Assembly: GCA_963976765.1 (NCBI GenBank) | Contig: CAXBME010000009.1 | Location: 124,001 to 188,000, forward strand | Origin: an uncultured Planctomycetaceae bacterium | Lineage (GTDB): Bacteria > Planctomycetota > Planctomycetia > Planctomycetales > Planctomycetaceae | Direction: 5' to 3' | DNA length: 64,000 bases | Shown: piece by piece, positions 37,311 to 54,913 of the stretch | How the letters are laid out: each line of letters opens with the position of its first letter | Position numbering within the stretch: position 1 is the stretch's first letter | The notes under the pieces: model-generated | Seen by the model: only the letters and a program-made list of their open reading frames with translations | Told to the model about the DNA's origin: nothing | The model's database searches: none | Position numbers and translations under genes: made by a program

Positions 37311-37315
37311 ACAGA

Positions 37316-37498: not shown

Positions 37499-38572
37499 TC
37501 ACGTGTAAGTGAGTGCGAGTTCGGATTCTGAAATTTCGCAGGTCACTGATACCGCATTCGTAAGTTCATTGCCTTGGGGCTCCAAGGCATCCGCTGGCTG
37601 GGGCGGGGCTTTTGGAGTCGCCCATGACAGAGCAAACAACGGACTCCTGGTTGCACGGATTACAGCTTCCTGATGCTCTCTTTGTCGGCGTTCGGTGCGG
37701 ATGGACTGCTGAAGTACCGCGAGTTGCTGCCGATCACGCGGATCATGTTTTCTTTGAGATTGGCCAATTTCCCGGTCAATGCGGTATTGATATCGTTCTT
37801 CAGCGAATTCGGCTCGGCGTTCTGCGAGCGAGTGTTCTCGGAGGTCTTGTTCGCATCGATGGCGAAATTTTTCGCGCTCGAATTCAAGCCGCTGTTTGGA
37901 TTGTTCGTAGTCGAGAAGCATACCGGTGAATTTCGCAGATTGAGCCGGGTCGACAATTGGCATGTCCATGGCTGCTCGCGATTTAAGATGCAGCGACTGT
38001 TCAAGTGACTGAAGTCTCGCAGTTTCATCGTTGAAGTTCGGCCCGGTGGACGAGGCCAGGACGGATGCAACTATCGGTCCGCCCGAATATGCCGTTGCGT
38101 ATCGAGCCGCCTGCTCAAACCTGCCGGCACTACGCTCCGGGGCCATAACTTGAGCATCGATCCATGAGCTGGCATTGCGATTTTCTTCGATATCAAAGAA
38201 CAACTCGCGTGTGAGTCGAACAACCTCGATATCAATGGCCGTCTGTTCGACGATCGATTTATCACTGCTGCCACCGAGCACGAGAATGATGAATGATTCT
38301 CGAAGCGGGCTCGTCAGCCAGAAAGATTCCGATGTTGCAACTAACCGATGTCGTTCTGACGCGATCTCTGGACCAGACTCCATACAGGCTGCAAGGAAAC
38401 GCACCGCTGCATGGACGCTCTCATCAGCAATCTTGCGCATCCAACGAAGTGGGGCTTCCTGAATTGCAGTCGCAAGACGCCAACGCCATGCAGGGCCATT
38501 GAGAGTTCTATGCAGCGACCGGGCCTGCTCCACGCCTGCTTCGTCAGACAATCCACTCGGTGACATGGTCAC
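37499..38572 (-). CDS. hypothetical protein
   Basis: 357 aa, GAGGTG RBS, PAWRW..ELFFD..WI..AYSGGP, C-terminal coiled coil. Confidence 0.75.
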   Translation of the reverse strand: MTMSPSGLSDEAGVEQARSLHRTLNGPAWRWRLATAIQEAPLRWMRKIADESVHAAVRFLAACMESGPEIASERHRLVATSESFWLTSPLRESFIILVLGGSSDKSIVEQTAIDIEVVRLTRELFFDIEENRNASSWIDAQVMAPERSAGRFEQAARYATAYSGGPIVASVLASSTGPNFNDETARLQSLEQSLHLKSRAAMDMPIVDPAQSAKFTGMLLDYEQSKQRLEFEREKFRHRCEQDLREHSLAERRAEFAEERYQYRIDREIGQSQRKHDPRDRQQLAVLQQSIRTERRQREHQEAVIRATRSPLFALSWATPKAPPQPADALEPQGNELTNAVSVTCEISESELALTYT

Positions 38573-38592
38573 GTTTCACCTCTTGTGATGAT

Positions 38593-39048
38593 TTACTTCA
38601 TTGCCTCAGAGACATTCGTCTGCGGACGAGCCGACTGCCAGCCACGGATTTCAGCTCCCTGAATCCGCAGCCCGACAGCCGCCAGTTGATCGTGAAGTTG
38701 TCGCCGCGTCTTTCTGAGTTCTGACCGGACCGCTTTCCGACACTCGGATATAGATTCCTGTCGACGAAGTTCCTGCTGCACAAGTTGCAGTGTCTCTCGT
38801 ACCAGTGACACTCCAGCCTGATCACTTCCGAGATAGATCGATCTCTGTTTACTGCCAGACCGATAGACCAGCCGATAGTAAGGCCCCAGTCGGCGGCCTT
38901 TGTAAGACCGCCAGGATTCCTGGACGCTGCCTTGATGGCTGAAAACATCAGCCTGTTGGCGAATCAGACTGACGGCATCGATTATTTTTTGGTCAACAGA
39001 TTCGAGTTTTTCCAGGATCTCTTCGTCGGCTGAATGCGGCATGTTCAT
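38593..39048 (-). CDS. putative DNA-binding protein (GPYY..YR..KQRSIYLG motif)
   Basis: Beta-hairpin motif followed by a coiled coil; ATGA overlap with the upstream gene; paralogous to the N-terminus of the 40579 ORF. Confidence 0.7.
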   Translation of the reverse strand: MNMPHSADEEILEKLESVDQKIIDAVSLIRQQADVFSHQGSVQESWRSYKGRRLGPYYRLVYRSGSKQRSIYLGSDQAGVSLVRETLQLVQQELRRQESISECRKAVRSELRKTRRQLHDQLAAVGLRIQGAEIRGWQSARPQTNVSEAMK

Positions 39049-39497
39049 TCCGCTCCCGAAAATTCACGCTGGATCGGATCATATCCTCCCGGAAGAACTC
39101 CGTGCCGTTCACGGAAATCCTGCAGACGGACCCAGAACGCACTTGCCTTACCCTTGGCAGCAACAACTCTCAACAGTCGCGACACTTTAGTGTCTCTCTC
39201 CTGACGTGAATCGGGACTGCTATCTGTGTGCAGAAAGTCGCGACCGATTTCGAACATTTCAAGGACTTCGAGCCACAGCAACTGGACGATGGTGACGCCG
39301 GTCGATTGTTCAATTCCGGGCTTAGCGCGAAGCACGAGTTCCTCATAGGCAGGATTCACGAGTGCCAGAATGCCCGTTCGTAAATCCGATGGCAAGCTGT
39401 CAAAGTCGACGCCCTCGGGCATCCAGTACGGTCGAATTGCCGCTGGCCCTGCGGCATGATTTGTTTTCGTGTCCATGTCTTCTTGTTCCTGAATCAT
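39045..39497 (-). CDS. hypothetical protein
   Basis: 150 aa ORF in a tightly coupled minus-strand operon. Confidence 0.7.
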   Translation of the reverse strand: MIQEQEDMDTKTNHAAGPAAIRPYWMPEGVDFDSLPSDLRTGILALVNPAYEELVLRAKPGIEQSTGVTIVQLLWLEVLEMFEIGRDFLHTDSSPDSRQERDTKVSRLLRVVAAKGKASAFWVRLQDFRERHGVLPGGYDPIQREFSGAE

Positions 39498-40579
39498 GAA
39501 ATTGAAGTTCGTGCAGCAACGGAGACATCTGGTGGGGCTCGGCGTCCCCCCACGTCTGTGTCTGCCTGCACGGGTATCAGATTGCTGTTTCTTCGGAATG
39601 GCCGGTTGAAGTGCCCCACTGCATAGCTGAAACCGCTCGCGTCACTTAACCGGTGCGCTGGCTTGCAGCTTCGCCCAGTCGAACGTCCAGGCGTGCAAGA
39701 CGTTCGGTCATCTGAACGGTTTTCAGATAAACCTGGAGACCCGGCATGAGGGTTCGCAGCCGGTCCGAACGTCCGGCATCGACTTCCAGGCTGTCGTCGA
39801 TCGCCAGTTTCAGATCGTGACACATTTCGAGAAGATCGCTTGCAACAGGACCGAGGCACGCTCGAAGCGAGTCGGGTGAATCGAGCGATGCCTCCAGGTG
39901 TTTCTGGATTCGAGCTTTTCTCTTCTCGGCCAACTGGTTGCCTCCGACCGTTTGTTGGCTGATCGGTGGCATTGGTCCTTCGGATGGCAGAATTGCCTGA
40001 TCTCTGTTCGTACTGTCCGTCGTCATTCTCTTTTCCCTCCGTGTCGATGAATCCGCCGGTCATGACGCTCGTGCCGGCACGTTTCAAATTAACTTCGTCA
40101 GAATCAACACCAGGCATCGATGCCTGGTGTTGTCGAATCTCAGCACCATGAAAGTGGTAGCCAAGTACCTCAAGAATCGGACTCAACTGCTGACGCGACT
40201 CACGCAGCAACTCTTTCGCTCGCAACATGAGCCGATTCAGTTTCCGCCACGCCTCTGTCCGTTTTTGCAACTGTTTGAGTTCTTGCTGGGCCTGTGCAGC
40301 ACGTTTGGATGACTTTCCCAGTCCTCGGACGACCTGGCAGCCGTCCCTGCGAAAACGCAGTTTGAAGTATGTTCCGGAAGGTCGGATTTCGGCCGATACG
40401 AATCCCTGCCGTGATAACGACTCCAGGTCGGACTCTGTCAGATTCAAGGACGCAAGCAGCGGAAATGCGTGTAGAGCCCGTTGCGATCGGCATGATCCGA
40501 ACGGTAGCGAACAATCCGGAGATCCACAGATTCTGCTACTGCTGCAAGAGCACTGAGAGGTTTCGGCAATACTTAACAT
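39494..40579 (-). CDS. putative DNA-binding protein; only the first ~150 aa look genuine, the tail reads through the next gene
   Basis: SRQGFV..GTYFKLRFRRDGCQVVRGLG...GYHFHGAEIR aligns with the 38593 gene. The start overlaps the stop of the 40573 gene. Confidence 0.55.
   Translation of the reverse strand: MLSIAETSQCSCSSSRICGSPDCSLPFGSCRSQRALHAFPLLASLNLTESDLESLSRQGFVSAEIRPSGTYFKLRFRRDGCQVVRGLGKSSKRAAQAQQELKQLQKRTEAWRKLNRLMLRAKELLRESRQQLSPILEVLGYHFHGAEIRQHQASMPGVDSDEVNLKRAGTSVMTGGFIDTEGKENDDGQYEQRSGNSAIRRTNATDQPTNGRRQPVGREEKSSNPETPGGIARFTRLASSVPRSCCKRSSRNVSRSETGDRRQPGSRCRTFGPAANPHAGSPGLSENRSDDRTSCTPGRSTGRSCKPAHRLSDASGFSYAVGHFNRPFRRNSNLIPVQADTDVGGRRAPPDVSVAARTSIS
39646..40026 (-). CDS. hypothetical helical protein
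   Basis: GGAGG upstream of ATG 40026; protein-like composition; nested in another frame of the 361-aa ORF. Confidence 0.7.
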   Translation of the reverse strand: MTTDSTNRDQAILPSEGPMPPISQQTVGGNQLAEKRKARIQKHLEASLDSPDSLRACLGPVASDLLEMCHDLKLAIDDSLEVDAGRSDRLRTLMPGLQVYLKTVQMTERLARLDVRLGEAASQRTG

Positions 40580-41793
40580 GGTCGTGAAAACTCCCGATAA
40601 ACTTGCAGAATCTGACCGACAAGCAGCTGCAGATTGCGTGCGTCACCAAAATCTGGCTGCCGTTCACGCCGGCGCCCCTCGATCACCCAGCGTGCCTCCC
40701 GGACAACTCTGCTTTCGGCATGACAACGCGTCATCAATTCAGCGACATTGATGAGCAACGCGCTGCGCAGAGGGTCTCGATCACTCGTGGCCGCATCACG
40801 AATGCGCTGGATGACCTCCTGGTCGTAGAGTAGATTCAGTCGGTCGAGTTTCGCCGTCAGCGATCGCTCCTGACCTCTCACCGACTCTGCGCGGCGAAGA
40901 TCAGTAGTGATTTCATGCCTCACTTCCGCGTAGTTACCCGGTGCTCCCGATACCGTAGGCGGCGCGGCTGCTGGGCACACGGAATCAGCGATGCTTTGGC
41001 GAAGGAATCGACGAACGAGGTCTTTGTCCTGCAGATCCACCGCCGTGCGAATTTCGTTCAGGTCACTTGAAGCGGGCTGCCAGGCAAACATCAAATCTGT
41101 GTCAAAACCAAGGACGGAATCCGCTCGATAGATCAACCGGCGAATCGAAACCATCTCTTCAGATACTTCATTCCTGATCGATGATAGATTCCAGCCGGCA
41201 AGAACGATTTGAGTCGGGTTTCGGGCTATATCCGCTCGTTGTTTTCCTCCCGGTTCACCGCTGCGAATTTCTGCTGGGCGTCCAAACAACAACCGCAGTT
41301 GAGGGCCTTTCATGGCAGCAAGGCCAGCGGCCAACGTAGCAGGAATTCCAAGCGTCCGAAGAACTGCCAGATCGCTTAAGCTGAACGCAGCGACAACCTT
41401 TTTCCTCAGCGAAATTGACGCCGACTTTGTCGTCGAGTCGCTCAATGCCCTGAACACCGCTGGCTCTTGAGAAACTGGCAGAACACCATTGGCCATCACC
41501 AGTTCGAGCGGCAAGTCGACGCTTTCATCGAATGATGCCGCGAATTGAGCCTCTGACCTGTTCAAAAGCGGATGAAGGTCTACGTTTTCACCCACTCGGA
41601 CACACACGCCCGACTGAATTAAGGTTGCGACATCAAATTCACTGTGAAGCGCATCACGAAGATCAGCGGGATCGCATGTCAGACGTCTGACGCTCGAATC
41701 AGCACCGAGAAACTCCCAGCATACAGGAAGTGAAAGAGGCTCGGTCTGAGCAAATACGAATTGGAGAACTGATTCGATAGCCAAGTCGTCCAT
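40573..41793 (-). CDS. degenerate DnaG/TOPRIM-like protein
   Basis: L..EFDVATLIQSGV and KVVAAFSLSDLAVLRTLGIPATLAAGL..QIVLAGW resemble the DnaG core, but the catalytic Glu and DxD are absent. GGAAGG RBS. Confidence 0.5.
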   Translation of the reverse strand: MDDLAIESVLQFVFAQTEPLSLPVCWEFLGADSSVRRLTCDPADLRDALHSEFDVATLIQSGVCVRVGENVDLHPLLNRSEAQFAASFDESVDLPLELVMANGVLPVSQEPAVFRALSDSTTKSASISLRKKVVAAFSLSDLAVLRTLGIPATLAAGLAAMKGPQLRLLFGRPAEIRSGEPGGKQRADIARNPTQIVLAGWNLSSIRNEVSEEMVSIRRLIYRADSVLGFDTDLMFAWQPASSDLNEIRTAVDLQDKDLVRRFLRQSIADSVCPAAAPPTVSGAPGNYAEVRHEITTDLRRAESVRGQERSLTAKLDRLNLLYDQEVIQRIRDAATSDRDPLRSALLINVAELMTRCHAESRVVREARWVIEGRRRERQPDFGDARNLQLLVGQILQVYREFSRPC

Positions 41794-41899: not shown

Positions 41900-42544
41900 A
41901 TGCCCGAATCCAATTCAGAACTCACCCGACAACGCTTCCAACAGTTACTCAATGACCTTTCTGAAATGGGACTAACGCAGCGAGAGATCGCGGACAGGGT
42001 CAACATCCCGCCTCAATACGTTTCGAATCTGAAGACCGGCCAGCGAGAGATGAAGGAGCTGGTGGCGCGGCGATTTGGAACCGTCTTTGGATATAACTAC
42101 GAGTGGCTGCTCGGAAACTCAGACAAGAGGAATGCACTGACGATCGCGTCGACTCTCACGGAGTCATTGAGCCGGAAGTTCCCGGTGCTGGATCTTCTGA
42201 TTGAAGGCGATCCTCAATCGAATGAAGACTGGGACGGTACATTCGCTGAATTGAGCGGCGCGGCAGCGGTGCGAGTCCGAAGCTGTCATACTCCATACGT
42301 GCTGAGATGCTCCATTGACGATCTCCAAGGAAGAATTCGACAGCGCGATCTACTTCTCATTTCGCAGGAAGCGCGTGAGGACGCCGAAATCCATGTTGTT
42401 CGCCATCGAAAACGACTCGTACTCGCCCGTGCAGGAGCGGAAGGACGCTACCAGCGAGTCAGCGATGGGCAGGAACTGACTGCAGAATGCACCGTGGTCG
42501 CACATTGCGTGGGGATCGTCTGGGCATCGCTGGTCGGTAGTTGA
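41900..42544 (+). CDS. XRE/CI-like repressor (HTH + degenerate S24-like domain)
   Basis: GLTQREIADRVNIPPQYVSNLKTG..YEWLL. The C-terminal YVLR..D....I..RDLLLI..VVAHCVGIV lacks the GDSM serine. Confidence 0.8.
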   Translation: MPESNSELTRQRFQQLLNDLSEMGLTQREIADRVNIPPQYVSNLKTGQREMKELVARRFGTVFGYNYEWLLGNSDKRNALTIASTLTESLSRKFPVLDLLIEGDPQSNEDWDGTFAELSGAAAVRVRSCHTPYVLRCSIDDLQGRIRQRDLLLISQEAREDAEIHVVRHRKRLVLARAGAEGRYQRVSDGQELTAECTVVAHCVGIVWASLVGS

Positions 42545-42837: not shown

Positions 42838-43710
42838 ATGAAACGATTGCGGAAGAAGTGCGCGCCGATTGAGAATGCGTCCGACTTTTCAGAGTCGTCG
42901 CCGGCGGCCTCGCGCGCCGCGTGGACTGGTTGTCTCAGGATTGGAGCCATCATCGCGCACGTGCGTGCTTATCCATCCGCGAAGGATGATGATGGACCTG
43001 AACTGCACCAGTTTCACCGAGGCTGCGGTAAGCGGATTCAGTGTCCCCGGATGTGCCCGAAGCACGGAACTCTCGCCAGTGAAGATATCGTCAAAGGCAT
43101 TGAGTCCGCGAATGGAAAACCGATTCTTATGGATGAAGACTCTCTGCGACGTCTTCGTCCGCCAAAGGATGAAGAACTTGTACTCGAACGATTCGTCGCT
43201 GCGGCAGACATTGATCCAGTGATGTATTCGGGCCGGCACCTCTACATAGCCCCGGCTTCGAAAGTGGCTGCCGCGCCGTTTGGCTTGATGGCCGGGACTC
43301 TCTCCAGACTCGGGAAGCTGGGAGTCGGACAACTCACCGTAAACGGACGAAAGAGTCTGGTTGCCGTGATGACTCGGGCTCAGCGATTGACGCTTCATTT
43401 TCTCCATTACCCAGGACAGATTCGCTCAGTCCCAGCCTTCGATGTGGTGACTGAGGATGCGAGCTTCGGTGCGCCGCTGGTTGAACAGTTTGTCAACGAG
43501 CGAAACAGCCACGTTGACTGGTCGGGCTATCAGGACCCTGTCCCTGGAATCGTGGACGAACTGATCAACACCCACAGCTCAACGCGTCGAGGTCGGCGAA
43601 AGTCGACACCACGGGCGACCGCCACCAAGTCGGACAAGTGCAACCCGACGAAGGCGACTACCTCAAGTCTGACCGGCAGGAAGTCGTCTGTTCGTAGAAA
43701 CAGCCGATGA
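42838..43710 (+). CDS. ku: Ku DNA end-binding protein
   Basis: RAAWTGCLRIG, LHQFH..CGKRI...MC, EDIVKG.E, ERFV...DIDP.MY, LHFLHYP.QIR, YQD, basic tail. GAAGGAG RBS before ATG 42838. Confidence 0.85.
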   Translation: MKRLRKKCAPIENASDFSESSPAASRAAWTGCLRIGAIIAHVRAYPSAKDDDGPELHQFHRGCGKRIQCPRMCPKHGTLASEDIVKGIESANGKPILMDEDSLRRLRPPKDEELVLERFVAAADIDPVMYSGRHLYIAPASKVAAAPFGLMAGTLSRLGKLGVGQLTVNGRKSLVAVMTRAQRLTLHFLHYPGQIRSVPAFDVVTEDASFGAPLVEQFVNERNSHVDWSGYQDPVPGIVDELINTHSSTRRGRRKSTPRATATKSDKCNPTKATTSSLTGRKSSVRRNSR

Positions 43711-44531
43711 AAGAAACGTCTCCACCCACTCCCGCGTTATCCCTGACGCCATCAACCTTTCGCCTGAGACGAAGAACACCAGGCTCTTTTCTGCTGATTC
43801 CATCGGTCCGTGAAGGACGTTGCATTCGCTGTCAGGGACAACTTGAAGGAAAGGCCGCACTGATTTTGGCCGCATGCCCATCCGTGACGTTGCTGCAGGA
43901 GCAACCAGGCCAAATCTGGTACGAATGGGATACGACTTCCAACGATGTGATCCGACTCTTTGACGAACCTCAACGGTTGAGTCGCCGTAAGTGTCGCCTG
44001 CGAACCAGCTACATCGTTCCCGACTTTCTTGTCGAAACTCGACGGCACAAACGACTGATTGAAGTCAAACCATCCAGGCGGCTGCACAAACCGGACACTG
44101 TGCGCAAGCTTTCGGTCGCTCGACTCTATGCGCAACAGAACGAAATGACATTTCACGTCCTGACTGAGCGGCATCTGTCGCGTCAGCCTCTGCTGGACAA
44201 CGTCCGACAGCTCAGTCGCTACTCCAGATTTGAATCCGACCACTGTCTCGTGAGGGCAATCATCGACGGCGTTTCCCGTGATGGAACGTCGACCCGCCAG
44301 TTGGTGACACAACTTGATCAGCCTGATTCAGTCCTGACGTGGCACATCCTCTTCCTGCTGGCAACCCACGAGGTAAGCACCGACCTGATTCAGCACTCGT
44401 TGAATACTGACTATCACCTCTATCCGAAAGGAGTTCTTGAATGGGATCCGTTCGAATCAGTGTGGGCACCGAATGGCTCGCTGACGGACGGGTCTGGCGA
44501 GTTGTTCGACAACCCAGCCCTGAAGTGCTGA
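43707..44531 (+). CDS. tnsA: TnsA-like endonuclease
   Basis: LE, EQP..I.Y, YIVPDFLV, LIEVKP, F.VLTE motifs (PD-(D/E)xK); C-terminal wHTH. Confidence 0.85.
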   Translation: MKETSPPTPALSLTPSTFRLRRRTPGSFLLIPSVREGRCIRCQGQLEGKAALILAACPSVTLLQEQPGQIWYEWDTTSNDVIRLFDEPQRLSRRKCRLRTSYIVPDFLVETRRHKRLIEVKPSRRLHKPDTVRKLSVARLYAQQNEMTFHVLTERHLSRQPLLDNVRQLSRYSRFESDHCLVRAIIDGVSRDGTSTRQLVTQLDQPDSVLTWHILFLLATHEVSTDLIQHSLNTDYHLYPKGVLEWDPFESVWAPNGSLTDGSGELFDNPALKC

Positions 44532-46480
44532 TCGCCAAGGAACACAAATCAGCCACGGAAATGGAATTGCATCTCGATGAAGTCCTTCGTGAATTCACGA
44601 GCGGGAGACTGAGTCTTCTCGACACCACTCCAGACAGCTCGACGAGCGTGGTGTCCAGAACCCGCGACATTCGTGATCTTCCGGTGAAACAGCGTGAGAT
44701 TGTGGAACAGCGCTGGAACATGATCGAGCCCCTTACAACGATGGAATGCAGTCCGACCAATACAGACTTTGAAGTCAGGGCCACGCAACTGCGGCAGGAA
44801 GGAATCAACACGTCCCGAGCATCACTCCGACGATACTACTCGGCATGGAAGGATTCAGGTGGAGATCCACGAGCAATTACTCCCCGCCTGGGACGATGCG
44901 GAGGACGTGGCCGGTCGCGACGGGACAGTCAACTGGCTCAGTATCCAATGCTCAATCGATTCGTTGAGAACAGCATCCGTGATGTCTATCTCACCACGGC
45001 ACGGCGTCCAATCTCAGCGGCGGTCCGACGAGTTCTGGAAGACGTTCAGCGACTGAATTCACGATTGCCTTCGGACAAAGCGTTACCGGTTCCACGGGAG
45101 CGGTCACTCTCTCGGGCCATTGCTCGAAGGATCGAGCGGATGGATCCGTGGGAAGTCGACCGGCAGCGGTGGGGAAAGCGGATCGCTGATCAACGACACG
45201 CGCCTCGGACTCCCCAGTCCATGGCTCGCCGGATTCTGGAGCGGGTCGAGGTCGACCATTCGCCGCTGAAGGTTGTCGTTGGCACGCAGGCCGGTCCGAT
45301 TGGGCAACCGTGGCTGACCGTACTGATTGACTACTACAGCCGGATGATTGTCGGCTTCTGTCTCGGGTTTGATCCGCCCTCGTACGCTGTGCTGATGGAA
45401 TCCTTACGCCACTCCATTCTCCCAAAGACTGAGGCCGCCTCAACTTATCCATCAGTAAAAGGCAGCTGGCCGTGTTTCGGAATTCCCGAGATGATCGTTT
45501 GTGACCGGGGAACGGACCTGACAAGTAACGATCTGGAAAATGCCGCGTTTCAACTGGGCATCGTGCTCGACTTCAACCCGCCGCGCACGCCGCATATGAA
45601 GGGATGCGTCGAATCATTCTTTGGAGGACTGAACGACCAGTTGATCTCTGCACTGCCGGGGCGAACATTTCGCAGCTGGGAGAAACGGGCCGACTACAAC
45701 GCTGACGACGGGCCGTTGCTGCCCTATGAATCGCTGCTGGAAATCATCCACGTCTATCTCATCGACGTCTACGCCCTGTCGAAACATCCGACCATTCCAC
45801 AGACCCGACTTGAGGTTTGGCAGGACAGTGCCGCCGAGTATCCGCCGTTTTTGCCGGGTTCGCCAGAAGACCTCGTCGTGCTGCTGTCGAAGCGGGCCGA
45901 GCGGACACTTTCGACACGCGGCATCGAACTCGGTGGCATGTTCTATATCAGCGACGATCTGATGGCACTACGCGCCGATCTCGCAGCAAACAATCTCAGC
46001 TCAGACCGCATGACGGTGCGGTACAACCCCTGGAACCTTGGCTCGATCCGTGTGCTGAATCCAATTGACGGTTCGTACATTCGCGCGAACGCTGTGGATG
46101 AGACTCTCGAAGGAATGACGGAGTTTCAGTGGAAAGTTCTGAAGCGTGCAGTGAGGGAGCGATTCGATTCGCCGGATTACCAGATGTCACTGGCCGAGGG
46201 TCGGAACGTCATCCGTGACATCGCCGAAACCACAATGAAGAAACCGTCGAAACGAAGGCGAACGAAGGCCGCCCGTTTTCTGGGCGAATCGCGTTCGGCC
46301 AACATGGATGATACGACTGCTACCTCTCAGATCGTCGCGGCTTCGTCAGCATCAGACACTGCCAGCAAAATTCTAACCAAGCCGGACGCTGTGACTTCAC
46401 AGCCTGCCGACGCCGACACGGATTGCGAATTTGATGACCTTGATCTCGACAACTGGGAGGTTGATACGACCAGCACCTGA
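44441..46480 (+). CDS. tnsB: TnsB/TniA DDE transposase
   Basis: VEVDHS (D), PWLTVLIDYYSR, IVCDRG (D), KGCVESFF (E), Mu-type C-terminus VRYNPWNLG. AGGAG RBS. Confidence 0.92.
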   Translation: MGSVRISVGTEWLADGRVWRVVRQPSPEVLIAKEHKSATEMELHLDEVLREFTSGRLSLLDTTPDSSTSVVSRTRDIRDLPVKQREIVEQRWNMIEPLTTMECSPTNTDFEVRATQLRQEGINTSRASLRRYYSAWKDSGGDPRAITPRLGRCGGRGRSRRDSQLAQYPMLNRFVENSIRDVYLTTARRPISAAVRRVLEDVQRLNSRLPSDKALPVPRERSLSRAIARRIERMDPWEVDRQRWGKRIADQRHAPRTPQSMARRILERVEVDHSPLKVVVGTQAGPIGQPWLTVLIDYYSRMIVGFCLGFDPPSYAVLMESLRHSILPKTEAASTYPSVKGSWPCFGIPEMIVCDRGTDLTSNDLENAAFQLGIVLDFNPPRTPHMKGCVESFFGGLNDQLISALPGRTFRSWEKRADYNADDGPLLPYESLLEIIHVYLIDVYALSKHPTIPQTRLEVWQDSAAEYPPFLPGSPEDLVVLLSKRAERTLSTRGIELGGMFYISDDLMALRADLAANNLSSDRMTVRYNPWNLGSIRVLNPIDGSYIRANAVDETLEGMTEFQWKVLKRAVRERFDSPDYQMSLAEGRNVIRDIAETTMKKPSKRRRTKAARFLGESRSANMDDTTATSQIVAASSASDTASKILTKPDAVTSQPADADTDCEFDDLDLDNWEVDTTST

Positions 46481-46506
46481 CACTTCGTCCTAACAGGAAA
46501 ACAGCC

Positions 46507-47538
46507 ATGGCCACATCGCCTGACCGAAAGAAATGGAAGACGATGGCGGCTGAGGATCGGATCGCCGCCGTCAATACGCTGCTGGTGCTGCATCCGCGCT
46601 TCCGAGATGCGGTCGATCTCCTGAAACGCTGCCACGAAGACAGTCGGCGATCTGCAGAGCCAGTCTGCGGAGCATTGCTCGGAGCCTCGGGTGTCGGCAA
46701 GACCACGGTGATTGACCACTACCGGCGGTCATTCCCGGTGGAAGAAACCGAAACTGCCACGCTTCAACGCGTACTGAAAGTGACACTCCAACCCAATGCG
46801 AAGCCGAAAGGCATTGCTGCCGACATTCTTTTCGCATTGCGGGACCCGGCATGGAGTTCCGGCACGGTCCAGACGCTGACCAACCGCGCGGTTCACCTCC
46901 TTGAACACTGCGGCGTTGAACTGATCATTCTCGATGAGTTCCACCACCTGTTCGATTCCGAACGTTCGCGCGTAATGACTCAGGCCGCTCAGTGGCTGAA
47001 AGTGCTGATCGTCAACACGCGAATTCCGGTGGTCGTGTCGGGGATGCCGGAAGCGACCTACGTGCTCAATGCGGAACACACAGAACGTCGCTTCAAGGAT
47101 CGGCTGACATTCCGTTGTTTCAACTGGCGGACTCAGCCGGGGCGGCGTGAATTCTGCGGGATGCTCAAGAAACTGGACGACACCATTCCACTGGCGAAGG
47201 TATCCGGGCTGGCGGTACCGGACCTGGCGGGTCGTATCTATTTGGCCTGCCGAGGGATTCCCGACTACCTCATGACCCTGATTCGCGGTGCGGTTTGCGA
47301 AGCGATTGAACGCGGTGCTGAAGCGATCGAGATGTCCGACCTGGCACGCGTCTACGAGTCTCGACTGACTCACCAGCGCATTATCTCAGAACAAGACAAC
47401 CCGTTTATTGGCAGTCTTGACCAAAGTGCACTGGATCGTGTCCAGCCAGCCGATGGCGTGCGCGTCGCTACCACTGGACTGACTCCTCGCGCCGCGCATC
47501 GCAGGAAGCGCGAGCTTCAGGCGGCTGACGTTCTCTGA
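46507..47538 (+). CDS. tnsC: TnsC/TniB AAA+ ATPase
   Basis: HPRF, Walker A GASGVGKT, Walker B LIILDEFHHL, PVVVSG, ERRF. Confidence 0.92.
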   Translation: MATSPDRKKWKTMAAEDRIAAVNTLLVLHPRFRDAVDLLKRCHEDSRRSAEPVCGALLGASGVGKTTVIDHYRRSFPVEETETATLQRVLKVTLQPNAKPKGIAADILFALRDPAWSSGTVQTLTNRAVHLLEHCGVELIILDEFHHLFDSERSRVMTQAAQWLKVLIVNTRIPVVVSGMPEATYVLNAEHTERRFKDRLTFRCFNWRTQPGRREFCGMLKKLDDTIPLAKVSGLAVPDLAGRIYLACRGIPDYLMTLIRGAVCEAIERGAEAIEMSDLARVYESRLTHQRIISEQDNPFIGSLDQSALDRVQPADGVRVATTGLTPRAAHRRKRELQAADVL

Positions 47539-49557
47539 ATGACCAACCGCAAGATAACCAGGGAGTTGAGCATGTCCGTTATTCCGGCAAGAGCGCCGCC
47601 TGTCGAGGGTGAATCGCTGTTGAGTGTCATTCGTCGCACGACACAGGCGATGGGATACGAAAGCACAAGCCGTATCCTCAAGCTGATCAGCCAGGCGGGT
47701 GCTGTCCCGTTCTGGCTGAATGAGATCCAGGCAGGCAGCGTCAGCGAACGACTGGCAGATCTGCTGGGGAGGACCTCCAGTGACGTGATGCGGCACACGA
47801 TTCACCGCTACTCGCAATCACTGGTCCTGACTGACGGTGAAGGTCCAGCTCCGCAGGTGTGCGACAACAAAACCAGGCTTCGTTACTTCGACCCGCAGGC
47901 ACGCGTTTGCCCGCAGTGCCTCGGTGATTCGTCAAATCCGTTCGAAAGACTGATCTGGTCATTCCGCCCGGCGCCAGTATGCGTCGACCATGGAACGCTG
48001 CTGCTGTCCCGTTGCTCAGCCTGCAGTAAGCCGATTCCCAACGCTCGGCCATGCAATGCAGAATGCCGCTGTGGGCACCGTCTGGATCAACTCTGCGTTG
48101 AGCAACCAGACGACGAGCTCGTCCGGCCGATCCGAATGCTCCTCGCTGCTTTGGACACCGGCCAGCGAATGATTCCCAACGCGTCGTTGCCAGCGGCGTT
48201 CTTCTGGCTCGAACGGATGACTCGGGCAGTCGACCAATGCGCTGCCTGGAAGCAACAACTGCGAACCACGTGGAATCTCGGCAGTGCTTACACGGATGAA
48301 ACGATTTCCTGGCTGGCTGCCGCGAGCATCATCGAGCGCTGGCCTGATGGTCTGTTCGAATTCCTCGATACCTACGTTCGCCAACCAAAATACTGCCAGA
48401 CGGCAACCGGACTGGGAAGAAGACTCGGACGGCTGCATCACCACGCCAGTGAGCTTGAGGGACTTGGTCACAGCGGGCCGGCTGACGCGATGCGTGAGTA
48501 TCTCTCACAGCGATACTCGGCCGGGCATATCAATGGAAAGGTTTGTCTCTTTCAAGGACTCGGTACGCCGTTGCTGGCCGATCAGGACTGGATGACCAGG
48601 ACTCTGGCTGCAGCGGAACTGAAGGTCAGTGTCGCGGCTGTTTCTCGACTGGTCACTGATGGTGTTCTGAACGGTGAGATTCACATGGCCGGCCACAACG
48701 GAAAGTCCATCGGAGTGGTCGCTCGCGCTTCACTGGATCGACTGAAACGACAACTCGTTTCGTCAATCACCTCGACGGAAGCGGCGACGCGTCTGGGAAT
48801 CCATCGGCACCGAGTCGCCGAACTGATTCGTACTGATGTCCTGAAAGGAGCCGTGCGTGTTAAAGGAAGCTGGCATATCCCGATGCAGTCACTCGATGAC
48901 GTCCTGCGGCTGATCTCAGACCTGCACCCCATACGGCGACTTCGACCGCCATACCTGTCACTCCGTGAGGCAACTCGACGCTTTGGCAAGCGAGGATTCA
49001 CACTCGCAGTGGCGATCCAGTTGATCAGCGACGGACTGCTGCCTGCGAAACGAGCCGTCGATGGCGACTCACTGGCTGCCGTCATCGTCAACGCGGACGA
49101 CATCGAACAATGCCGGGCTGAGATTCAACGCATGCGGGACGACCGCAAAGGCATTCCACTCAACCGTCTTGCCCAAACGCTGCTTCCCGGTCGGCCCACT
49201 AAAGAACGTGTCCTGAAGAAGTGGATCGAGACCGGACTGTTGAACGCTGATCGTTCCAGGCGTGAATCGAGTGTGACTCGCGCTGAGGTGGAACGTTTCC
49301 GGTCGACCTATTGCCTGGCAGCCGAAGCCTGCCAGATTCTGGGACTCCACCGGCGAACGCTGGGGGCCTGGGAAACCGCCGGGCATCTCACGCCGGTCTA
49401 CGGACCACGCGTCACGCCCGGCGCTGGGTTCACGGTTTACCTACGCACCGACATTGAACGGCTCAAGGATACAAGGCCGATGCGACGTCACCCGTCCGCT
49501 CAATCCAACAACAAAAATCAATCCAACCAACATCGAAAGGAGGACGCTTGCACCTGA
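47539..49557 (+). CDS. tniQ: TniQ/TnsD-like target selector with multiple C-terminal HTH repeats (alternative start 47572)
   Basis: PVEGESLLSVIRR, CPQC..W...CVDH..LL..CSAC..CRCG zinc motifs, then about five excisionase/MerR-like HTH repeats. Confidence 0.88.
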   Translation: MTNRKITRELSMSVIPARAPPVEGESLLSVIRRTTQAMGYESTSRILKLISQAGAVPFWLNEIQAGSVSERLADLLGRTSSDVMRHTIHRYSQSLVLTDGEGPAPQVCDNKTRLRYFDPQARVCPQCLGDSSNPFERLIWSFRPAPVCVDHGTLLLSRCSACSKPIPNARPCNAECRCGHRLDQLCVEQPDDELVRPIRMLLAALDTGQRMIPNASLPAAFFWLERMTRAVDQCAAWKQQLRTTWNLGSAYTDETISWLAAASIIERWPDGLFEFLDTYVRQPKYCQTATGLGRRLGRLHHHASELEGLGHSGPADAMREYLSQRYSAGHINGKVCLFQGLGTPLLADQDWMTRTLAAAELKVSVAAVSRLVTDGVLNGEIHMAGHNGKSIGVVARASLDRLKRQLVSSITSTEAATRLGIHRHRVAELIRTDVLKGAVRVKGSWHIPMQSLDDVLRLISDLHPIRRLRPPYLSLREATRRFGKRGFTLAVAIQLISDGLLPAKRAVDGDSLAAVIVNADDIEQCRAEIQRMRDDRKGIPLNRLAQTLLPGRPTKERVLKKWIETGLLNADRSRRESSVTRAEVERFRSTYCLAAEACQILGLHRRTLGAWETAGHLTPVYGPRVTPGAGFTVYLRTDIERLKDTRPMRRHPSAQSNNKNQSNQHRKEDACT

Positions 49558-49751
49558 CTCTGATCTGCTTTCTATCTGTTGCAGTGCTGTTCGCCGTCAC
49601 GGCGTTCCTGAGGGAGCGTCGTCTGCGGCTGGCTCTGCAGAAACTCATTCGCTGTCTGTTCTCCAGACGGAGGTCCAGTGAATTCACAAAGAGCACTAAC
49701 GATGATTCTGCTGGCGATGGCACTCACGCTTCAGACGGGCTGTCAGTCTGA
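49548..49751 (+). CDS. small membrane protein
   Basis: GGAGG RBS, TTG start overlapping the tniQ stop, TM followed by RERRLRLALQ. Confidence 0.55.
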   Translation: MHLTLICFLSVAVLFAVTAFLRERRLRLALQKLIRCLFSRRRSSEFTKSTNDDSAGDGTHASDGLSV

Positions 49752-50280
49752 AAGTGATCGTATCGCGGCGCTGTCACAGGAACACACGCGACTGCAGGCT
49801 GAGCAATCCCTGCGAATGGCTCAATTGCAGGAACACGTCGCGAACGGTTCCCGAGCACTTGTCGAAGCTGATGCTACCGCGAGGGGAGAAATCATCGGCC
49901 TGCAGCGTGACATCCAGTCTGAGCGGGCCGAGATCGATCATCAGCGCGACAGGCTCGAAGCCGAGCGAAAACAGATCGCCGACGAACGCCGGAGCACTCC
50001 GGTCATCTCTGCCGCAATTACCAGCATCGGCCTGCTGCTGGCCTGCCTGCTGCCACTTCTGGTGTGCCTCAAACTGCTTTCCGGCCCAGACAATCCCGTT
50101 GATGATCAGGCCGTCTTGCAGGTGCTGCTCGACGAAGGCGGTTCGCACACAAACTTGTTGACGCACTCGAACGCAGAAGGCACCGAGCGGATCGGTGACG
50201 ATCCCCGACGTGCCCTCGATCAGCAACAGACCACGGAATCCGATACCCCACACGAGGAGCCTGAATGTCCCACATCGTGA
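49678..50280 (+). CDS. lipoprotein/membrane coiled-coil protein
   Basis: GGAGG RBS, lipobox-like QTGC, coiled coil, one TM. Confidence 0.7.
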   Translation: MNSQRALTMILLAMALTLQTGCQSESDRIAALSQEHTRLQAEQSLRMAQLQEHVANGSRALVEADATARGEIIGLQRDIQSERAEIDHQRDRLEAERKQIADERRSTPVISAAITSIGLLLACLLPLLVCLKLLSGPDNPVDDQAVLQVLLDEGGSHTNLLTHSNAEGTERIGDDPRRALDQQQTTESDTPHEEPECPTS

Positions 50281-50633
50281 CCATCACCACCGAAATTCGA
50301 GACGGCACGGCACTCTCCGCCGCGTGTCGCCGCCTGCAGATTGAACAGCCTCGACACGAAACCGTGCGTTTATTCAGCCGGGAAGTCACCGGCACAACAG
50401 TCCGGCTTCCGGAGTGGCGGTATCCGGTCGTGTGCCACCTCGCCACCGGCCAGATCGACTATGACAATTTCGAGGGCCGCTGGGGCGACAACCATCACTT
50501 GAACCGGCTCCGGCAGTCATACGCCGTTGAGAAAACCCGCATCGAAGCGAGGCGCACGGGGCACACGGTCACGGAACAGCAACTCGCCGATGGATCAATC
50601 CGTCTCTCCGTGTGCGCAGGAGCAGCTTCATGA
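50265..50633 (+). CDS. DUF1257 (Ycf35-like) protein
   Basis: MSHIVTITTEIRD..AL..AC..L, YDNFEGRWG, QSYA, EQQLADGSIRL. Confidence 0.85.
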   Translation: MSHIVTITTEIRDGTALSAACRRLQIEQPRHETVRLFSREVTGTTVRLPEWRYPVVCHLATGQIDYDNFEGRWGDNHHLNRLRQSYAVEKTRIEARRTGHTVTEQQLADGSIRLSVCAGAAS

Positions 50634-50836
50634 AACGCATCGAAATCACCATCGCCCTGGACGGCAGCTCAACCGTCGAAACGAAGGGATTCACCGGATC
50701 AACATGCCGCACAGCCAGTCAATGGATTGAACGAGCCCTTGGGAAAACGGCCTGCGAACAACTGACACACGAGTTTCATGCCACTACGGAATCGCACCAC
50801 ACCGAGCATCGGCAGGATTGCGGAGGACATGATTGA
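50630..50836 (+). CDS. DUF2997 protein
   Basis: IEITIALDGSSTVETKGFTGSTC..AS..IERALG...T.EF. Confidence 0.85.
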   Translation: MKRIEITIALDGSSTVETKGFTGSTCRTASQWIERALGKTACEQLTHEFHATTESHHTEHRQDCGGHD

Positions 50837-51473
50837 ATCGAACGCCTCCCTGGCCGAGACACGACATCGGCCCGTGATTGTTGTCGTCGAAGGTCAGTTT
50901 GATATCGAGTTCCTCCGACGCATCTCGCGCACGCTCCATGCCGCCGATTCAGCGGTTCCGAATCTGGCCACCGAAGAGACTGACGGTAACGTGATTCTGG
51001 TGCCATTCGGTGGCGGCGGTCATGCGGAGTGGATTTCTCGATTCCAGTCCCTGCAACTGCCTGAGTTTCACCTCTTCGATCGCGAAACATCTCCGGAAAC
51101 GGAAAACCGCCTCGCCACCGCTGCTGCGATTAACGCCAGGCCAGGCTGCCATGCTGTCGTCATGCGACGTCGAAGTCTCGAAAACTATCTGCATTCTGAT
51201 GCGGTCGCTGAAGCCTTCGGCGTAACCATCGACATCACTCCGCAATGCTCCGTCGTCCAACGGCTGGCGACGGAGCTGCACAGGTCTGGCAGCTTCGCGA
51301 TTCCGTGGCACGAACTTTCCCGCAAAGGGCGACACCGACTCTTCAATCGACTGAAACGCCGACTGAATACCGCCGCCGCAGATTACATGACCGTCGAGAG
51401 AATCCAGCAGGCGGACTCTGCCTTCGAGATTCGTTTTTGGCTGCAATCCATCACCACTCTCGGCAACGACTGA
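50829..51473 (+). CDS. stand-alone OLD-type TOPRIM nuclease domain
   Basis: IVVVEG.FDIEFL, PFGG, LFDRE, RSLENYL; no ABC ATPase domain. Confidence 0.75.
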   Translation: MIESNASLAETRHRPVIVVVEGQFDIEFLRRISRTLHAADSAVPNLATEETDGNVILVPFGGGGHAEWISRFQSLQLPEFHLFDRETSPETENRLATAAAINARPGCHAVVMRRRSLENYLHSDAVAEAFGVTIDITPQCSVVQRLATELHRSGSFAIPWHELSRKGRHRLFNRLKRRLNTAAADYMTVERIQQADSAFEIRFWLQSITTLGND

Positions 51474-51510
51474 CGCTTTCCCTAATCGCTTCGTTTTCCG
51501 TGGAGGAACA

Positions 51511-53004
51511 GTGCAACTTTCAGAAACAATCACCAACTACGTACGTGCCTGCTTTGCCGGCATCTGGATTGAGAGCCACGAGCACGATGATGCCATCGCC
51601 GACATCGCGAAGATGTGTGAAAACGAAAACTGGTCGCTGGCCACGTGGGACCTCGACGCCGGGTTAACCGTTCCTGGTTCAACTAATCCGGAAGAATCAG
51701 GTTCGACTGATCCCATTGCGGCGCTGCGATCGATTAACGGCCTTGCCTCTGATGACGGGGCTGCATTGCTTGTGCTGAAGAACTTCCATCGACTGCTGGG
51801 GTCACCGGAAATTATTCAGGCGGTCGCCCGGCAGATCAGCCTGGGTAAGCAGAACCGTACGTTTCTCATTGTCCTGGCACCTGTGGTGCAGATTCCGATC
51901 GAGCTGGAGAAGCAGTTCGTGGTCCTGTCACACGAACTGCCCGACCGCGTTCAACTCGAACAGATCGCCCGCGACATCGCGACCGAAGAAAACGAATTGC
52001 CGACTGGCAACGAACTTGACCGTGTGCTTGATTCGGCTGCCGGTTTGACCCGGTACGAAGCTGAGGGGGCATTCTCACTGTCACTCGTTCAACACGGTTG
52101 CGTGGTACCGGATGTGATCTGGGGTCTGAAGTCACAGACGTTGCGTAAGAGTGGACTGCTGGGACTGCACCGTGGGGAGGAACGATTCGATCAACTCGGC
52201 GGACTCGACAATCTCAAAGCCTTCTGCCGTCGTGCACTGGCTCGATCGAATACAAAATCAAAACATCGGCCGCGTGGCGTGCTGCTGCTCTCGCCACCGG
52301 GTTGCGGCAAGAGTCAGTTCGCCAAAAGTCTCGGCAACGAATCTGGTCGGCCGACTCTGACGCTCGATATCGGCAGTCTGATGGGCAGTCTTGTCGGTCA
52401 GAGCGAGCAGAACATCCGCCACGCTCTGCAGATTGCTGACGCCATGGCACCGGCAATTCTGTTCTGCGATGAGATCGAAAAGGGACTCGCCGGATCAGGC
52501 GGCAGCGGCCAGGCCGATTCCGGGGTGACCGCACGCGTCTTCGGTAACCTGCTGACCTGGCTCAACGATCACACTTCCGATGTCTTTGTTGTGGCCACCT
52601 GCAATGACATCAGCCGGTTGCCACCAGAGTTTTCACGAGCCGAGCGTTTCGATGGCGTGTTCTTTGTCGATCTTCCCACTCGTGAACAGCGAGACGCCAT
52701 CTGGCAAATCTATATCAACGAGTTCGAACTCGACGCAGATCAGCAGCGACCTGACGACGAACACTGGACCGGTGCGGAGATCCGTGCCTGTTGCCGGCTT
52801 TCTGCGTTACTCGATGTACCACTGGCTCAGGCCGCCACCAACATCGTCCCGGTCGCCAGCACGTCGGCAGAGTCGGTCGACACGCTAAGAACCTGGGCCA
52901 GTGGCCGATGCCTGTCGGCAGACGCACCCAGTGTATTCACATGCAACTCGAAGAGGCGTCGGCGTAGACGTCGTGCCGTTCAGGGCAATCCCTTGAACAA
53001 CTGA
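51511..53004 (+). CDS. Ycf46-like AAA+ ATPase
   Basis: Degenerate N-terminal AAA, LGGLDNLK, PRGVLLLSPPGCGKS, LFCDEIEK, ATCNDISRLPPEFSRAERFD. Confidence 0.88.
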   Translation: MQLSETITNYVRACFAGIWIESHEHDDAIADIAKMCENENWSLATWDLDAGLTVPGSTNPEESGSTDPIAALRSINGLASDDGAALLVLKNFHRLLGSPEIIQAVARQISLGKQNRTFLIVLAPVVQIPIELEKQFVVLSHELPDRVQLEQIARDIATEENELPTGNELDRVLDSAAGLTRYEAEGAFSLSLVQHGCVVPDVIWGLKSQTLRKSGLLGLHRGEERFDQLGGLDNLKAFCRRALARSNTKSKHRPRGVLLLSPPGCGKSQFAKSLGNESGRPTLTLDIGSLMGSLVGQSEQNIRHALQIADAMAPAILFCDEIEKGLAGSGGSGQADSGVTARVFGNLLTWLNDHTSDVFVVATCNDISRLPPEFSRAERFDGVFFVDLPTREQRDAIWQIYINEFELDADQQRPDDEHWTGAEIRACCRLSALLDVPLAQAATNIVPVASTSAESVDTLRTWASGRCLSADAPSVFTCNSKRRRRRRRAVQGNPLNN

Positions 53005-53045
53005 TAAATTCATCCAGCCACAAGCCAAACGAGGATGCGTAGCCT

Positions 53046-54005
53046 ATGACACAATCCACGGCAACACTGCCCGACTCGACAGATGTTGGGAAACAACTCC
53101 GAGACTCGATGGCTGCGGTTCGACTCAGCTTCACCTGGCTCGGAGTGCGTCGAACTTTGACGCCTCAGCAGAAATCCACTGCGGCAGGAACCTTTGGCGC
53201 TGAAGGTGACTATCTGTCAGCCGGCAAGAAGTTGCTCAACACGAAGCACCCTAAATTCAAAGCCGTAACGACCGTTCGCGGTGAAGCGGTCGCTTTCTGG
53301 AAGAACATCAGCGTGCCCTGGCCGGAACCCGGTATTCGGCTGATGCGGCAGGATGGAATTCGGTCGTTCGATCAGCGTCTGCGATTGCTGTCAGAGCAAC
53401 TTGATGAGGCGGTCGCAGAGCTCGACCATCACTTTGATGAGCTGAAGGAATCGGCACGTGACCGGCTGGGTAGCCTGTTCAACGAAGCTGATTACCCGAG
53501 TACGCTTCGGGGCGCGTTCGGCATTGCATGGGACTTTCCGGCTGTCGAACCGCCAAACTATCTGCGACAGCTCAATCCCGAACTCTATGAACAGGAATGC
53601 GACCGAGTGCGGACGCGGTTTGCCGAGGCTGCCAGGCTCGCCGAAGAAGCATTCATTGCCGAGCTGTCAGAAATCGTTTCACACTTATGCGAACGGCTGA
53701 GCGGTGAGCAGGATGCTCGGCCGAAAATCTTTCGCGATTCGGCCATCAACAATCTCACTGATTTCTTTGCACGGTTCCGTTCACTCAACGTCGGCTCGAA
53801 CGACGAACTGGAACGTCTCGTCGATCAGGCACAAAACGTCCTGCACGGTGTCCGTCCACAGGCGTTGCGGACAAGTGGCGAACTCCGGCAGCATGTCGCC
53901 ACGCAACTGTCCGGAGTGCAATCTGTGCTGGATGGTCTCATGGTCGATCGGCCTCGCAGGAACATCCTTCGACACAGCCGGCCAGAGGCGGAGGCTGCCG
54001 GATGA
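53046..54005 (+). CDS. DUF3150-like hypothetical protein
   Basis: SAGKKLL, SVPWPEPGIRL, RLGSLFNEADYP, KIFRDSAI; position downstream of the AAA gene. Confidence 0.65.
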   Translation: MTQSTATLPDSTDVGKQLRDSMAAVRLSFTWLGVRRTLTPQQKSTAAGTFGAEGDYLSAGKKLLNTKHPKFKAVTTVRGEAVAFWKNISVPWPEPGIRLMRQDGIRSFDQRLRLLSEQLDEAVAELDHHFDELKESARDRLGSLFNEADYPSTLRGAFGIAWDFPAVEPPNYLRQLNPELYEQECDRVRTRFAEAARLAEEAFIAELSEIVSHLCERLSGEQDARPKIFRDSAINNLTDFFARFRSLNVGSNDELERLVDQAQNVLHGVRPQALRTSGELRQHVATQLSGVQSVLDGLMVDRPRRNILRHSRPEAEAAG

Positions 54006-54241
54006 TCCTCATCGCAGAATCCGATGGACTTATGCGCTGCGTCTACGATGAAGCGATCGATGTAGGACAGCTTGGCTCGATCACGATCGAACGCGCCAGT
54101 CATGTCGAACCGAAGTGCGACAGAACGTGGACAGCCGACCTGACGCCAGTCGGCGGCCCTCTGCTGACTGGCTTTGAACGACGCAGCAAAGCACTCGCTG
54201 CTGAAATTGACTGGCTGAATAAAAACTGGCTGAGCGGCTGA
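54002..54241 (+). CDS. hypothetical protein
   Basis: ATGA coupling; CVYDEAID..LG..I.RASHVEP..W.ADL.PVGGP. Confidence 0.75.
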   Translation: MILIAESDGLMRCVYDEAIDVGQLGSITIERASHVEPKCDRTWTADLTPVGGPLLTGFERRSKALAAEIDWLNKNWLSG

Positions 54242-54294
54242 AGTCGCTGATGGATTACGATCTGGTCACGGAAGGACCTCAACAACGTTTCCAG

Positions 54295-54328
54295 GCCGTG
54301 TAGCGAATTGTTCGCCGCACGGCTTTTT
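54295..54328 (+). terminator. rho-independent terminator
   Basis: GCCGTG..GCGAA-TTG-TTCGC..CACGGC followed by TTTTT. Confidence 0.6.
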
Positions 54329-54365
54329 CTATGCGCCCTGTTTCACAACTTGAGGATGCCTTCCC

Positions 54366-54572
54366 ATGACAGACAACGACCTGAACCGAGCCGTCGCTCG
54401 TGCCACCGGTGAAACCGTCAGCGAAATTCGTTCACGCGGATTCTCGCTGGTGACTCCCGATTCCGAAACCTTCGAACCACCTCACAACAAGCGAGTGACA
54501 AGACCGCGACATCACAACGACCACCCGAGCAAAGGGGTATCGGCTGAGCCCGCCCTGGGCTCGCACGCGTAG
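54366..54572 (+). CDS. small hypothetical protein
   Basis: GAGGA RBS; LNRAVARATGETVSEIRSRGFSL. Confidence 0.65.
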   Translation: MTDNDLNRAVARATGETVSEIRSRGFSLVTPDSETFEPPHNKRVTRPRHHNDHPSKGVSAEPALGSHA

Positions 54573-54631
54573 ATCGAACGACGACTCATCACATCAACTG
54601 ACAACCTCTATTCGTAAGACAGGAAGCACTC

Positions 54632-54913
54632 TTGAAAATCCTTGTAATCAATAACGATGGTGGCGGCTTCGCTGACTATGTGAACGTCGCTGATGACACC
54701 ACAGTCGAGCAACTCTTCAAGTCACATTGCCCGTCAGCGGATGCGTCGAGTTACCTAATCAGAGTTAATCGTCAGCCCTGCGCCAGTGACCAGCGACTCA
54801 GCGAAGGTGATCGCATCAGCATTACGCCCACTAAAATCGAAGGTGCCGCAACGTTTCGCCGCAGTAGCTCTGCCGTTCGGCCCAGAGTGCCCCGGCATTA
54901 TCACAGTGGTTGA
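54632..54913 (+). CDS. ubiquitin-like (ThiS/MoaD beta-grasp) protein
   Basis: [15 protein letters not shown]...[19 protein letters not shown], followed by a 22-aa tail. Confidence 0.8.

Follow-up and report, generated by a model that had tools for sequence, protein, structure and literature searches.

Tn7 and other TnsA-bearing Tn7-like transposons (TnsABC with TnsD, among them parE-targeting elements such as Tn7017) combine the endonuclease TnsA with the DDE transposase TnsB, the ATPase TnsC and a long TniQ protein, and insert at a fixed attachment (att) site after an essential gene, parE being one such site (PMC11014353). In Tn7, excision by TnsA and TnsB results in a double-strand break of the donor together with a 5-bp duplication (PMC11406308), and TnsA leaves 3-nt overhangs (10.64898/2026.05.05.722991, in part; sources so marked were available in part). 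The fate of the donor after Tn7-type excision is poorly known. The Ku of non-homologous end joining in bacteria (NHEJ; TIGR02772; PDB 9vnq, 9i91, 8v53) keeps exonucleases off linear DNA in cell-free systems, with a strength that depends on context (PMC10146267, in part); a 'Ku only' state, without LigD, is otherwise rare (PMC7719229, in part). Mycobacteriophages (Corndog, Omega, cluster J) possess a Ku for their own DNA ends, and host LigD circularises the phage genome (PMC4351075, PMC7719229, both in part).

The subject here is a Tn7-like element with a Ku gene in its core block, found in a 64,000-nt stretch of DNA (the window) from an uncultured Planctomycetaceae bacterium. The window is positions 124001-188000 of contig C9 in an 8.57-Mb assembly (G000, the host genome) whose completeness is rated 100%. 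Five plus-strand open reading frames (ORFs) stand in tandem at 42838-49557 as ku-tnsA-tnsB-tnsC-tniQ, a gene block proposed by an earlier, sequence-only reading and borne out by the ORFs and Pfam matches; the ATGA overlap of the ku stop with the tnsA start (43707-43710) is read directly in the sequence. The element resembles Tn7-type transposons in its TnsA, TnsB, TnsC and long TniQ, in an 8-bp terminus followed by repeated TnsB sites, in asymmetric ends, in a fixed att site after an essential gene and in tandem and nested accumulation; a 5-bp duplication, putative here because it is read from two unjoined contigs, would be a further likeness. It differs in having Ku in the core block, in termini that begin TGG rather than TGT, in that no TnsE or second TniQ was found, in the right end of one sub-lineage, which has its own att copy, and in its target, which is gyrB here and the paralogue parE in known elements such as Tn7017. 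TnsA E47, D106 and K121 are invariant and E119 nearly so among 27 homologues, TnsB D272, D355 and E391 are invariant among nine, and the catalytic residues of both look intact. By its TnsA residues, TnsB, TnsC and TniQ, end structure and att site, we class the ku element as a predicted Tn7-like cut-and-paste transposon.

No published account of either a Tn7-like core with Ku or an att site at gyrB was found, in searches that could not use the bare word Ku and from which subscription papers were mostly absent. The gyrB gene is absent from the main texts of PMC10293859, PMC8649781, PMC11406308, PMC11014353 and bioRxiv 2025.07.27.667033. NHEJ terms are absent from the main texts of PMC10293859, PMC8649781 and bioRxiv 2025.07.27.667033, and PMC11406308 has only a generic genome-editing use of them. 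The Ku term does not occur in the accessible part of one PMC8649781 supplement; gyrB sites might still stand in the supplements of the surveys. On this footing the Ku in the core and the gyrB site appear to be new, the parE site and LigD-using phage Ku being known.

The linkage of ku to tnsA, its single origin, purifying selection on it, the loss of a C-terminal helix and a key leucine, the usual absence of LigD and the att site are established at the level of sequence. We propose that the transposon-linked Ku (Tn-Ku) is a LigD-independent cap for breaks made by transposition, binding ends without joining them; the chances for and against this seem to us equal.

Linkage of ku and tnsA

Loci were gathered by TnsB similarity alone (8 genomic, 55 metagenomic and the distant hit L113, 64 in all). 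A locus was informative when at least 400 bp lay upstream of tnsA (43/64); the 21 too short upstream were dropped. Of the 43, 40 have ku immediately upstream of tnsA, a count that includes duplicates and L059, which is the window. The three loci without ku are L062, where tnsA is disrupted by an insert (in our reading, an IS66-like insert that would interrupt its 5' end), L104, which has a tnsB fragment, and L113, the distant outgroup. The linkage is not unique to this strain, which would have refuted the sequence-only reading by its own terms. In 28 other loci the two genes can overlap by ATGA (6), lie less than 60 nt apart (19) or are irregular (3). Of the loci, 34 with Ku, TnsA and TnsB were scored, and in the 27 left after dereplication mean identity is 36% for Ku, 50% for TnsA and 64% for TnsB. 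The family is rare (close TnsB in 0/400 phylum genomes and 2/40 nearer relatives), and its titled records are Planctomycetaceae and Pirellulaceae.

The converse searches were negative. No tnsA was near Ku in 29 fetched Ku loci of the 400-genome phylum sample, the one set in which a Tn-type Ku away from tns genes would be seen, since the census itself starts from TnsB. No Ku stood beside 16 other TnsA-family loci in the same genomes (fetched flanks of up to 1.5 kb, short in some), mostly long fusion-type ORFs. No TnsB relatives were found in viral contigs, and plasmid and phage collections gave distant Ku only.

That Ku guards element DNA during cell-to-cell transfer, or counters RecBCD-linked immunity, and has no transposition role seems unlikely. 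Phages use end-binding proteins, some Ku clusters are rich in viruses, mycobacteriophages have Ku, and the element, for which no genes of transfer were identified, may move as linear DNA; ku would then adjoin tnsA for co-regulation. Against this, the upstream neighbours of ku vary freely while its position just before tnsA stays fixed, and ku has been exchanged together with tnsA (below).

Kept and lost features of Tn-Ku

Tn-Ku shares with bacterial NHEJ Ku the core fold (profile match to PDB Ku, E 4e-45; Foldseek E 8.5e-16 to 9vnq), the His/Cys bridge motif (kept in 26/28 Tn-Ku), six basic positions that are K/R in 96-100% of Tn-Ku versus 79-100% of other Ku, and a basic tail. It may bind double-stranded DNA ends as a ring dimer. 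Against TIGR02772 the window Ku scores 141.5, below the cut-off of 150, and the match stops at model position 239/259. Identity to mycobacteriophage Ku, which has no transposase linkage, is only ~27%.

Unlike NHEJ Ku, Tn-Ku is not linked to ligD and has lost two features. The minimal C-terminal helix is present in 0/27 Tn-Ku versus 26/29 other planctomycete Ku, and the post-core region is ~23 residues shorter (median). The equivalent of Leu13 in the synapsis loop (the beta-hairpin Leu-Val loop) is present in 0/25 versus 27/29, a count that leaves out three N-truncated Ku that could not be scored. The helix is the main Ku feature stimulating LigD ligation (PMC9638933, in part), and Leu13 is required for Ku filament formation and synapsis (PMC12658125, in part). 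Tn-Ku thus reads as a member of the Ku family (PF02735) that lacks three features of Ku-LigD systems: the helix, the ligase partner and the synapsis loop.

Ligases of the hosts

The sequence-only reading noted no ligD in the window, and none lies nearby; the host ligD that it proposed to look for did not turn up. Genome-wide, G000 has no match to PF01068 (ATP-dependent ligase) or PF21686 (LigD polymerase), only a stand-alone LigD phosphoesterase domain (L002, C2:459267-459551); host RecB matches over its cut-off. PF01068 occurs in two of the seven other hosts (one match weak), hence in 2/8 overall. PF21686 occurs in 1/8, G440, which also has a second, canonical Ku; in the other seven hosts Tn-Ku is the sole Ku. 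Phylum genomes bearing non-Tn Ku have PF01068 in 52 of 58 cases, a contrast rather than a test, because kin are not independent and most of the genomes are metagenome bins. Healing of the donor via LigD, as first suggested, is not supported: the ligase domain is scarce and the LigD-stimulating helix missing.

Descent, selection and exchange

In a 66-Ku tree (quick search; L025 left out, L015 mis-extracted) the 28 Tn-linked Ku all fall on one side of a branch (Shimodaira-Hasegawa-like approximate likelihood-ratio support, SH-aLRT, 97), apart from planctomycete Ku adjoining an ATP-dependent ligase or a TPR gene. The outgroup is not monophyletic, so no donor lineage is given. The expectation that the element has its own Ku is supported by the fixed place of ku in the tns block and by this one clade. 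The idea that Ku is a passenger from a host ku-ligD locus was ruled out by the single clade and the census. For the 11 closest pairs the ratio of non-synonymous to synonymous substitution rates (dN/dS) of ku is 0.09-0.25, similar to that of TnsA, and three distant, near-saturated pairs give 0.29-0.37, the pattern of purifying selection. Ku distances correlate with those of TnsA and of TnsB (Spearman 0.77 each, Mantel p 0.002).

Synonymous divergence (dS) changes abruptly along the block. Between the window and L049 it is 2.17 in ku, 1.54 in tnsA and 1.38 in tnsB 1-170, and then 0.51 in the tnsB core, 0.21 in tnsC and 0.12 in tniQ; over L049 and L051 the first group spans 1.4-2.2 and the second 0.1-0.6. 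The DNA alignment to the compared loci begins inside tnsB, and in the exchanged loci Ku is 39-42% identical where TnsC is 97-98% identical. By these distances ku was exchanged as one block with tnsA and the tnsB N-terminus.

Such co-exchange, with ATGA coupling that persists at ~40% Ku identity, is what would be expected if Ku were a structural cofactor of the transpososome, lying on flanking DNA beside TnsA and positioning or releasing the 5' cut. We consider this highly improbable: other TnsA systems work without such a factor (PMC11406308), and a closed Ku ring loads only once an end exists.

A separate group of planctomycete Ku stands beside a TPR gene, often with a divergent WYL regulator and no ligase (L016, L018, L028-L030, L032, L033, L037, L038). 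The Ku of L016 and L032 have a degenerate helix, and PF01068 is absent from both genomes.

Element ends, the gyrB target and the window junction

G000 has only three TnsB-site repeat clusters: window 37316, window 37310 and C31:62157. The left-type end at 37316 is also supported by L057 and L050. Contigs ~98% identical to it from three other studies begin at 37315/37316 with three different flanks, that of X10 being the flank of L057; such copies are indirect evidence that the family may be active in transposition. Because flanks differ beyond it, the terminus is TGGTGGG. Ends beginning TGT, with 6 nt lost at the junction, were ruled out, since the other flanks show TGGTGGG. A terminal stretch of 8 bp precedes the first TnsB site, likewise in Tn7 (PMC9308760, in part). 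Run X3 has a loose end at 37315.

The C31:62157 end starts 10 nt past the gyrB stop and has three TnsB sites, versus two in the abutting window end. Element ends lie 10-12 nt past the gyrB stop in nine cases, five of which share a contig with ku-tns (L071, L074, L078, L082, G440). Elsewhere the gyrB site is empty (G003), degenerate (G001) or where the contig ends (G006). The long TniQ would be the selector of this site.

The sequence-only reading drew attention to an end-to-end junction at 37310-37316 and offered circularisation as its meaning. The junction exists: a spacer of 5 nt (37311-37315) separates inverted ends there. On the minus strand the spacer is identical to C31:62152-62156, the 5 bp before the gyrB-side element end (a match with a chance of 1 in 1024). 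The simple reading would be a tandem insertion in the order gyrB, duplication, ku element, duplication, older element; the C31 and C9 ends lie on separate contigs whose join is unassembled, and the left end of G440 was not found. From C31 to C9, one element would exceed 130 kb. A circle junction, in which the element's own two ends are joined, was rejected: the right end that abuts here has another sequence than the one beside gyrB, and the 5 bp of the spacer are those of the gyrB-side flank. Near-identical elements in other samples, whose first base is the same but whose flanks are different, further oppose it.

We regard it as very unlikely that Ku drives end joining, through LigD or another ligase, to seal the donor or circularise the element. 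End-to-end junctions in G004 (L044, C181:19278-19282) and probably run X7 (record 20) have apparent 3-nt spacers, the size of the TnsA offset (10.64898/2026.05.05.722991, in part), the Ku core would still be able to bind LigD (PMC9638933, in part), and G440 has LigD. These junctions could reflect offset tandem insertion or TnsA-offset joining, both being possible. In G004 the right end at the junction differs from the gyrB-side end, and a tandem insertion displaced by 1 nt would explain the junction except for one base. The window junction is accounted for by a putative 5-bp duplication, and the LigD polymerase domain (one host in eight), the helix and the synapsis leucine are wanting.

Also unlikely is a role for Ku as a second, dispersal-pathway target selector, TnsE-like, that marks free double-stranded ends (incoming linear phage DNA, transforming DNA or breaks) and draws TnsC and TnsAB to them. 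Nearly all Tn7-like elements have two pathways, and TnsE prefers sites of double-strand-break repair (PMC11406308). ku and every tns gene are single-copy in G000, which has one TniQ only; TnsE_C was not found, in a search that gave no match in any control either; and Ku sits in the tns block with its joining features lost. Right ends occur away from gyrB too, in L042 (G004 C94) and L043 (G006 C594). Both lie just upstream of one gntR/ABC-transporter locus shared by the two genomes, which is not obvious mobile DNA; they are either a second site or captured cargo. Ku was exchanged with TnsA and the TnsB N-terminus and not with TnsC, unlike a selector that must fit TnsC, and no copy was found in viral contigs. 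The stronger form, in which Ku is an obligate sixth transposition protein, an end sensor that licenses or steers insertion and so founds a selector class of NHEJ origin that is neither TniQ nor TnsE, is likewise improbable.

In the sub-lineage of the window the gyrB 3' target recurs, in degenerate form, within the right end; such copies also occur at G000 C31:62270-62320 and in L146, L044, L046, L043 and L147, and were not seen in L071, L074, L078 or L082. G007 (L146) has five right ends stacked after gyrB, each ~42 nt past the internal copy of the previous end, and G004 has two stacked right ends. The element thus seems to supply its own att site, which would permit nested insertion despite target immunity.

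Model for Tn-Ku function

In the model that we favour, Tn-Ku would be co-expressed with TnsA and TnsB, and the dimer would thread onto the ends that they release, the likeliest of these being the donor flanks next to essential gyrB, with the excised element as a further possibility. The cap would block RecBCD temporarily, without bridging or ligating the ends, and repair would then be finished by host recombination or a housekeeping ligase. A functional comparison is the Gam protein of phage Mu, which protects the ends of a transposable element whose DDE transposase and ATPase relate it to Tn7; Gam is not of the PF02735 family, and Mu is a phage that moves replicatively. Taken as a whole, with the domestication of Ku as a fixed TnsA partner in a Tn7-like family as part of it, the end-cap reading has in our judgement an even chance of being right.

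Several points count against the end cap. (i) End binding by Tn-Ku is itself only deduced, because disruption of the beta-hairpin loop weakens DNA association and bridging in mycobacterial Ku (PMC12784962) and several basic positions of other Ku are lost in Tn-Ku, four columns falling to 0-21%. (ii) The Ku core alone binds LigD and stimulates it weakly (PMC9638933, in part), so that loss of the helix is compatible with some use of LigD. (iii) Where LigD is missing, Ku may stand in the way of recombinational repair (PMC7719229, in part), and a capped donor break could for that reason harm the host unless the cap is released. (iv) The completeness rating applies to G000 and not to the seven other hosts. 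(v) ku is split by a stop codon in L082/L096. (vi) The congruence of Ku with TnsB that the sequence-only reading had proposed to check stands for distances and only partly for trees: 8/14 supported Ku splits are recovered in the TnsB tree, with 5 conflicts, and 9/14 in the TnsA tree, with 4 conflicts (L082 is excluded from these trees and from the helix count).

The family as a whole appears to supply the donor break with an end-handling protein of its own. It would exemplify the domestication, by a transposase operon, of a bacterial repair protein stripped of its ligase-recruiting parts, and would give a concrete use for the 'Ku only' state. The system is compact and testable: it offers a natural Ku variant that would separate end capping from end joining, and a new att site in a phylum with few genetic tools.

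Gene neighbourhood and accessory genes

The coordinates of the locus are collected in Table 1. The helix-turn-helix (HTH) gene shares the strand of ku and ends 294 bp upstream of it; no plus-strand promoter-like site was found in 41700-43000. In L055, L070, L072 and L080 a thiF-like gene on the same strand ends ~80-95 bp 5' of ku.

Table 1 Features of the ku element and its left-hand junction (window positions)
Feature	Position	Strand	Evidence or remark
Att-like sequence within the older element's right end, degenerate copy of the gyrB 3' end	37170..37215	-	blastn to C31:62084-62118; gyrB C-terminus by tblastn/blastn
Right-type end of older neighbouring element	37267..37310	-	terminal TGGTGGGA at 37310; two TnsB-site repeats (37304, 37282)
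5-bp spacer	37311..37315	.	between the inverted ends
Left-type end of ku element	37316..37445	+	terminal TGGTGGGA; four unevenly spaced TnsB-site repeats (37322, 37376, 37399, 37430)
Five accessory ORFs within the element	37499..41793	-	no useful family; common to L050/L060 and L057
HTH_3 (XRE-like) regulator	41900..42544	+	occurs in part of the ku-element family
Ku, 290 aa	42838..43710	+	Pfam Ku 4.7e-24, 85.8 bits; AAGGAG at 42826-42831 precedes the ATG
TnsA endonuclease	43707..44531	+	TnsA-N (PF08722) 4.2e-11, over cut-off
TnsB DDE transposase	44441..46480	+	Pfam Mu-transpos_C/rve
TnsC AAA+ ATPase	46507..47538	+	TniB 2.4e-27; Walker A and B visible in translation
TniQ, long, TnsD-like, 672 aa, C-terminal HTH repeats	47539..49557	+	TniQ 7e-17
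Accessory module: DUF1257, AAA ATPase, DUF3150-like, JAB-like, ThiF	49678..57291	+	conserved, often within ku elements

The DUF1257-AAA ATPase-DUF3150-like-JAB-like-ThiF module rides with many ku elements, up- or downstream of the tns block, and more copies of the DUF1257/ThiF module lie on contigs C5, C12, C27, C33, C56 and C80 of G000. The clusters that its DUF3150-like protein resembles are mostly viral. PRTase-CE, ORC-CDC6-like and PfkB genes form one reverse-strand cluster (window 58379-63663 and C9:187660-189603) that is probably defence cargo. L010/L051 (G004 C181:27088-33249) is a damaged copy: a stop splits tnsA, and tnsC, besides being interrupted, is partly duplicated along with a tnsB fragment. 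Within the gyrB-side end of G000, C31:64645-69161 holds nucleotidyltransferase-like and E2/E1-type ORFs, which by eye look like a cyclic-oligonucleotide-based antiphage signalling system (CBASS), followed by a V-type ATPase cluster.

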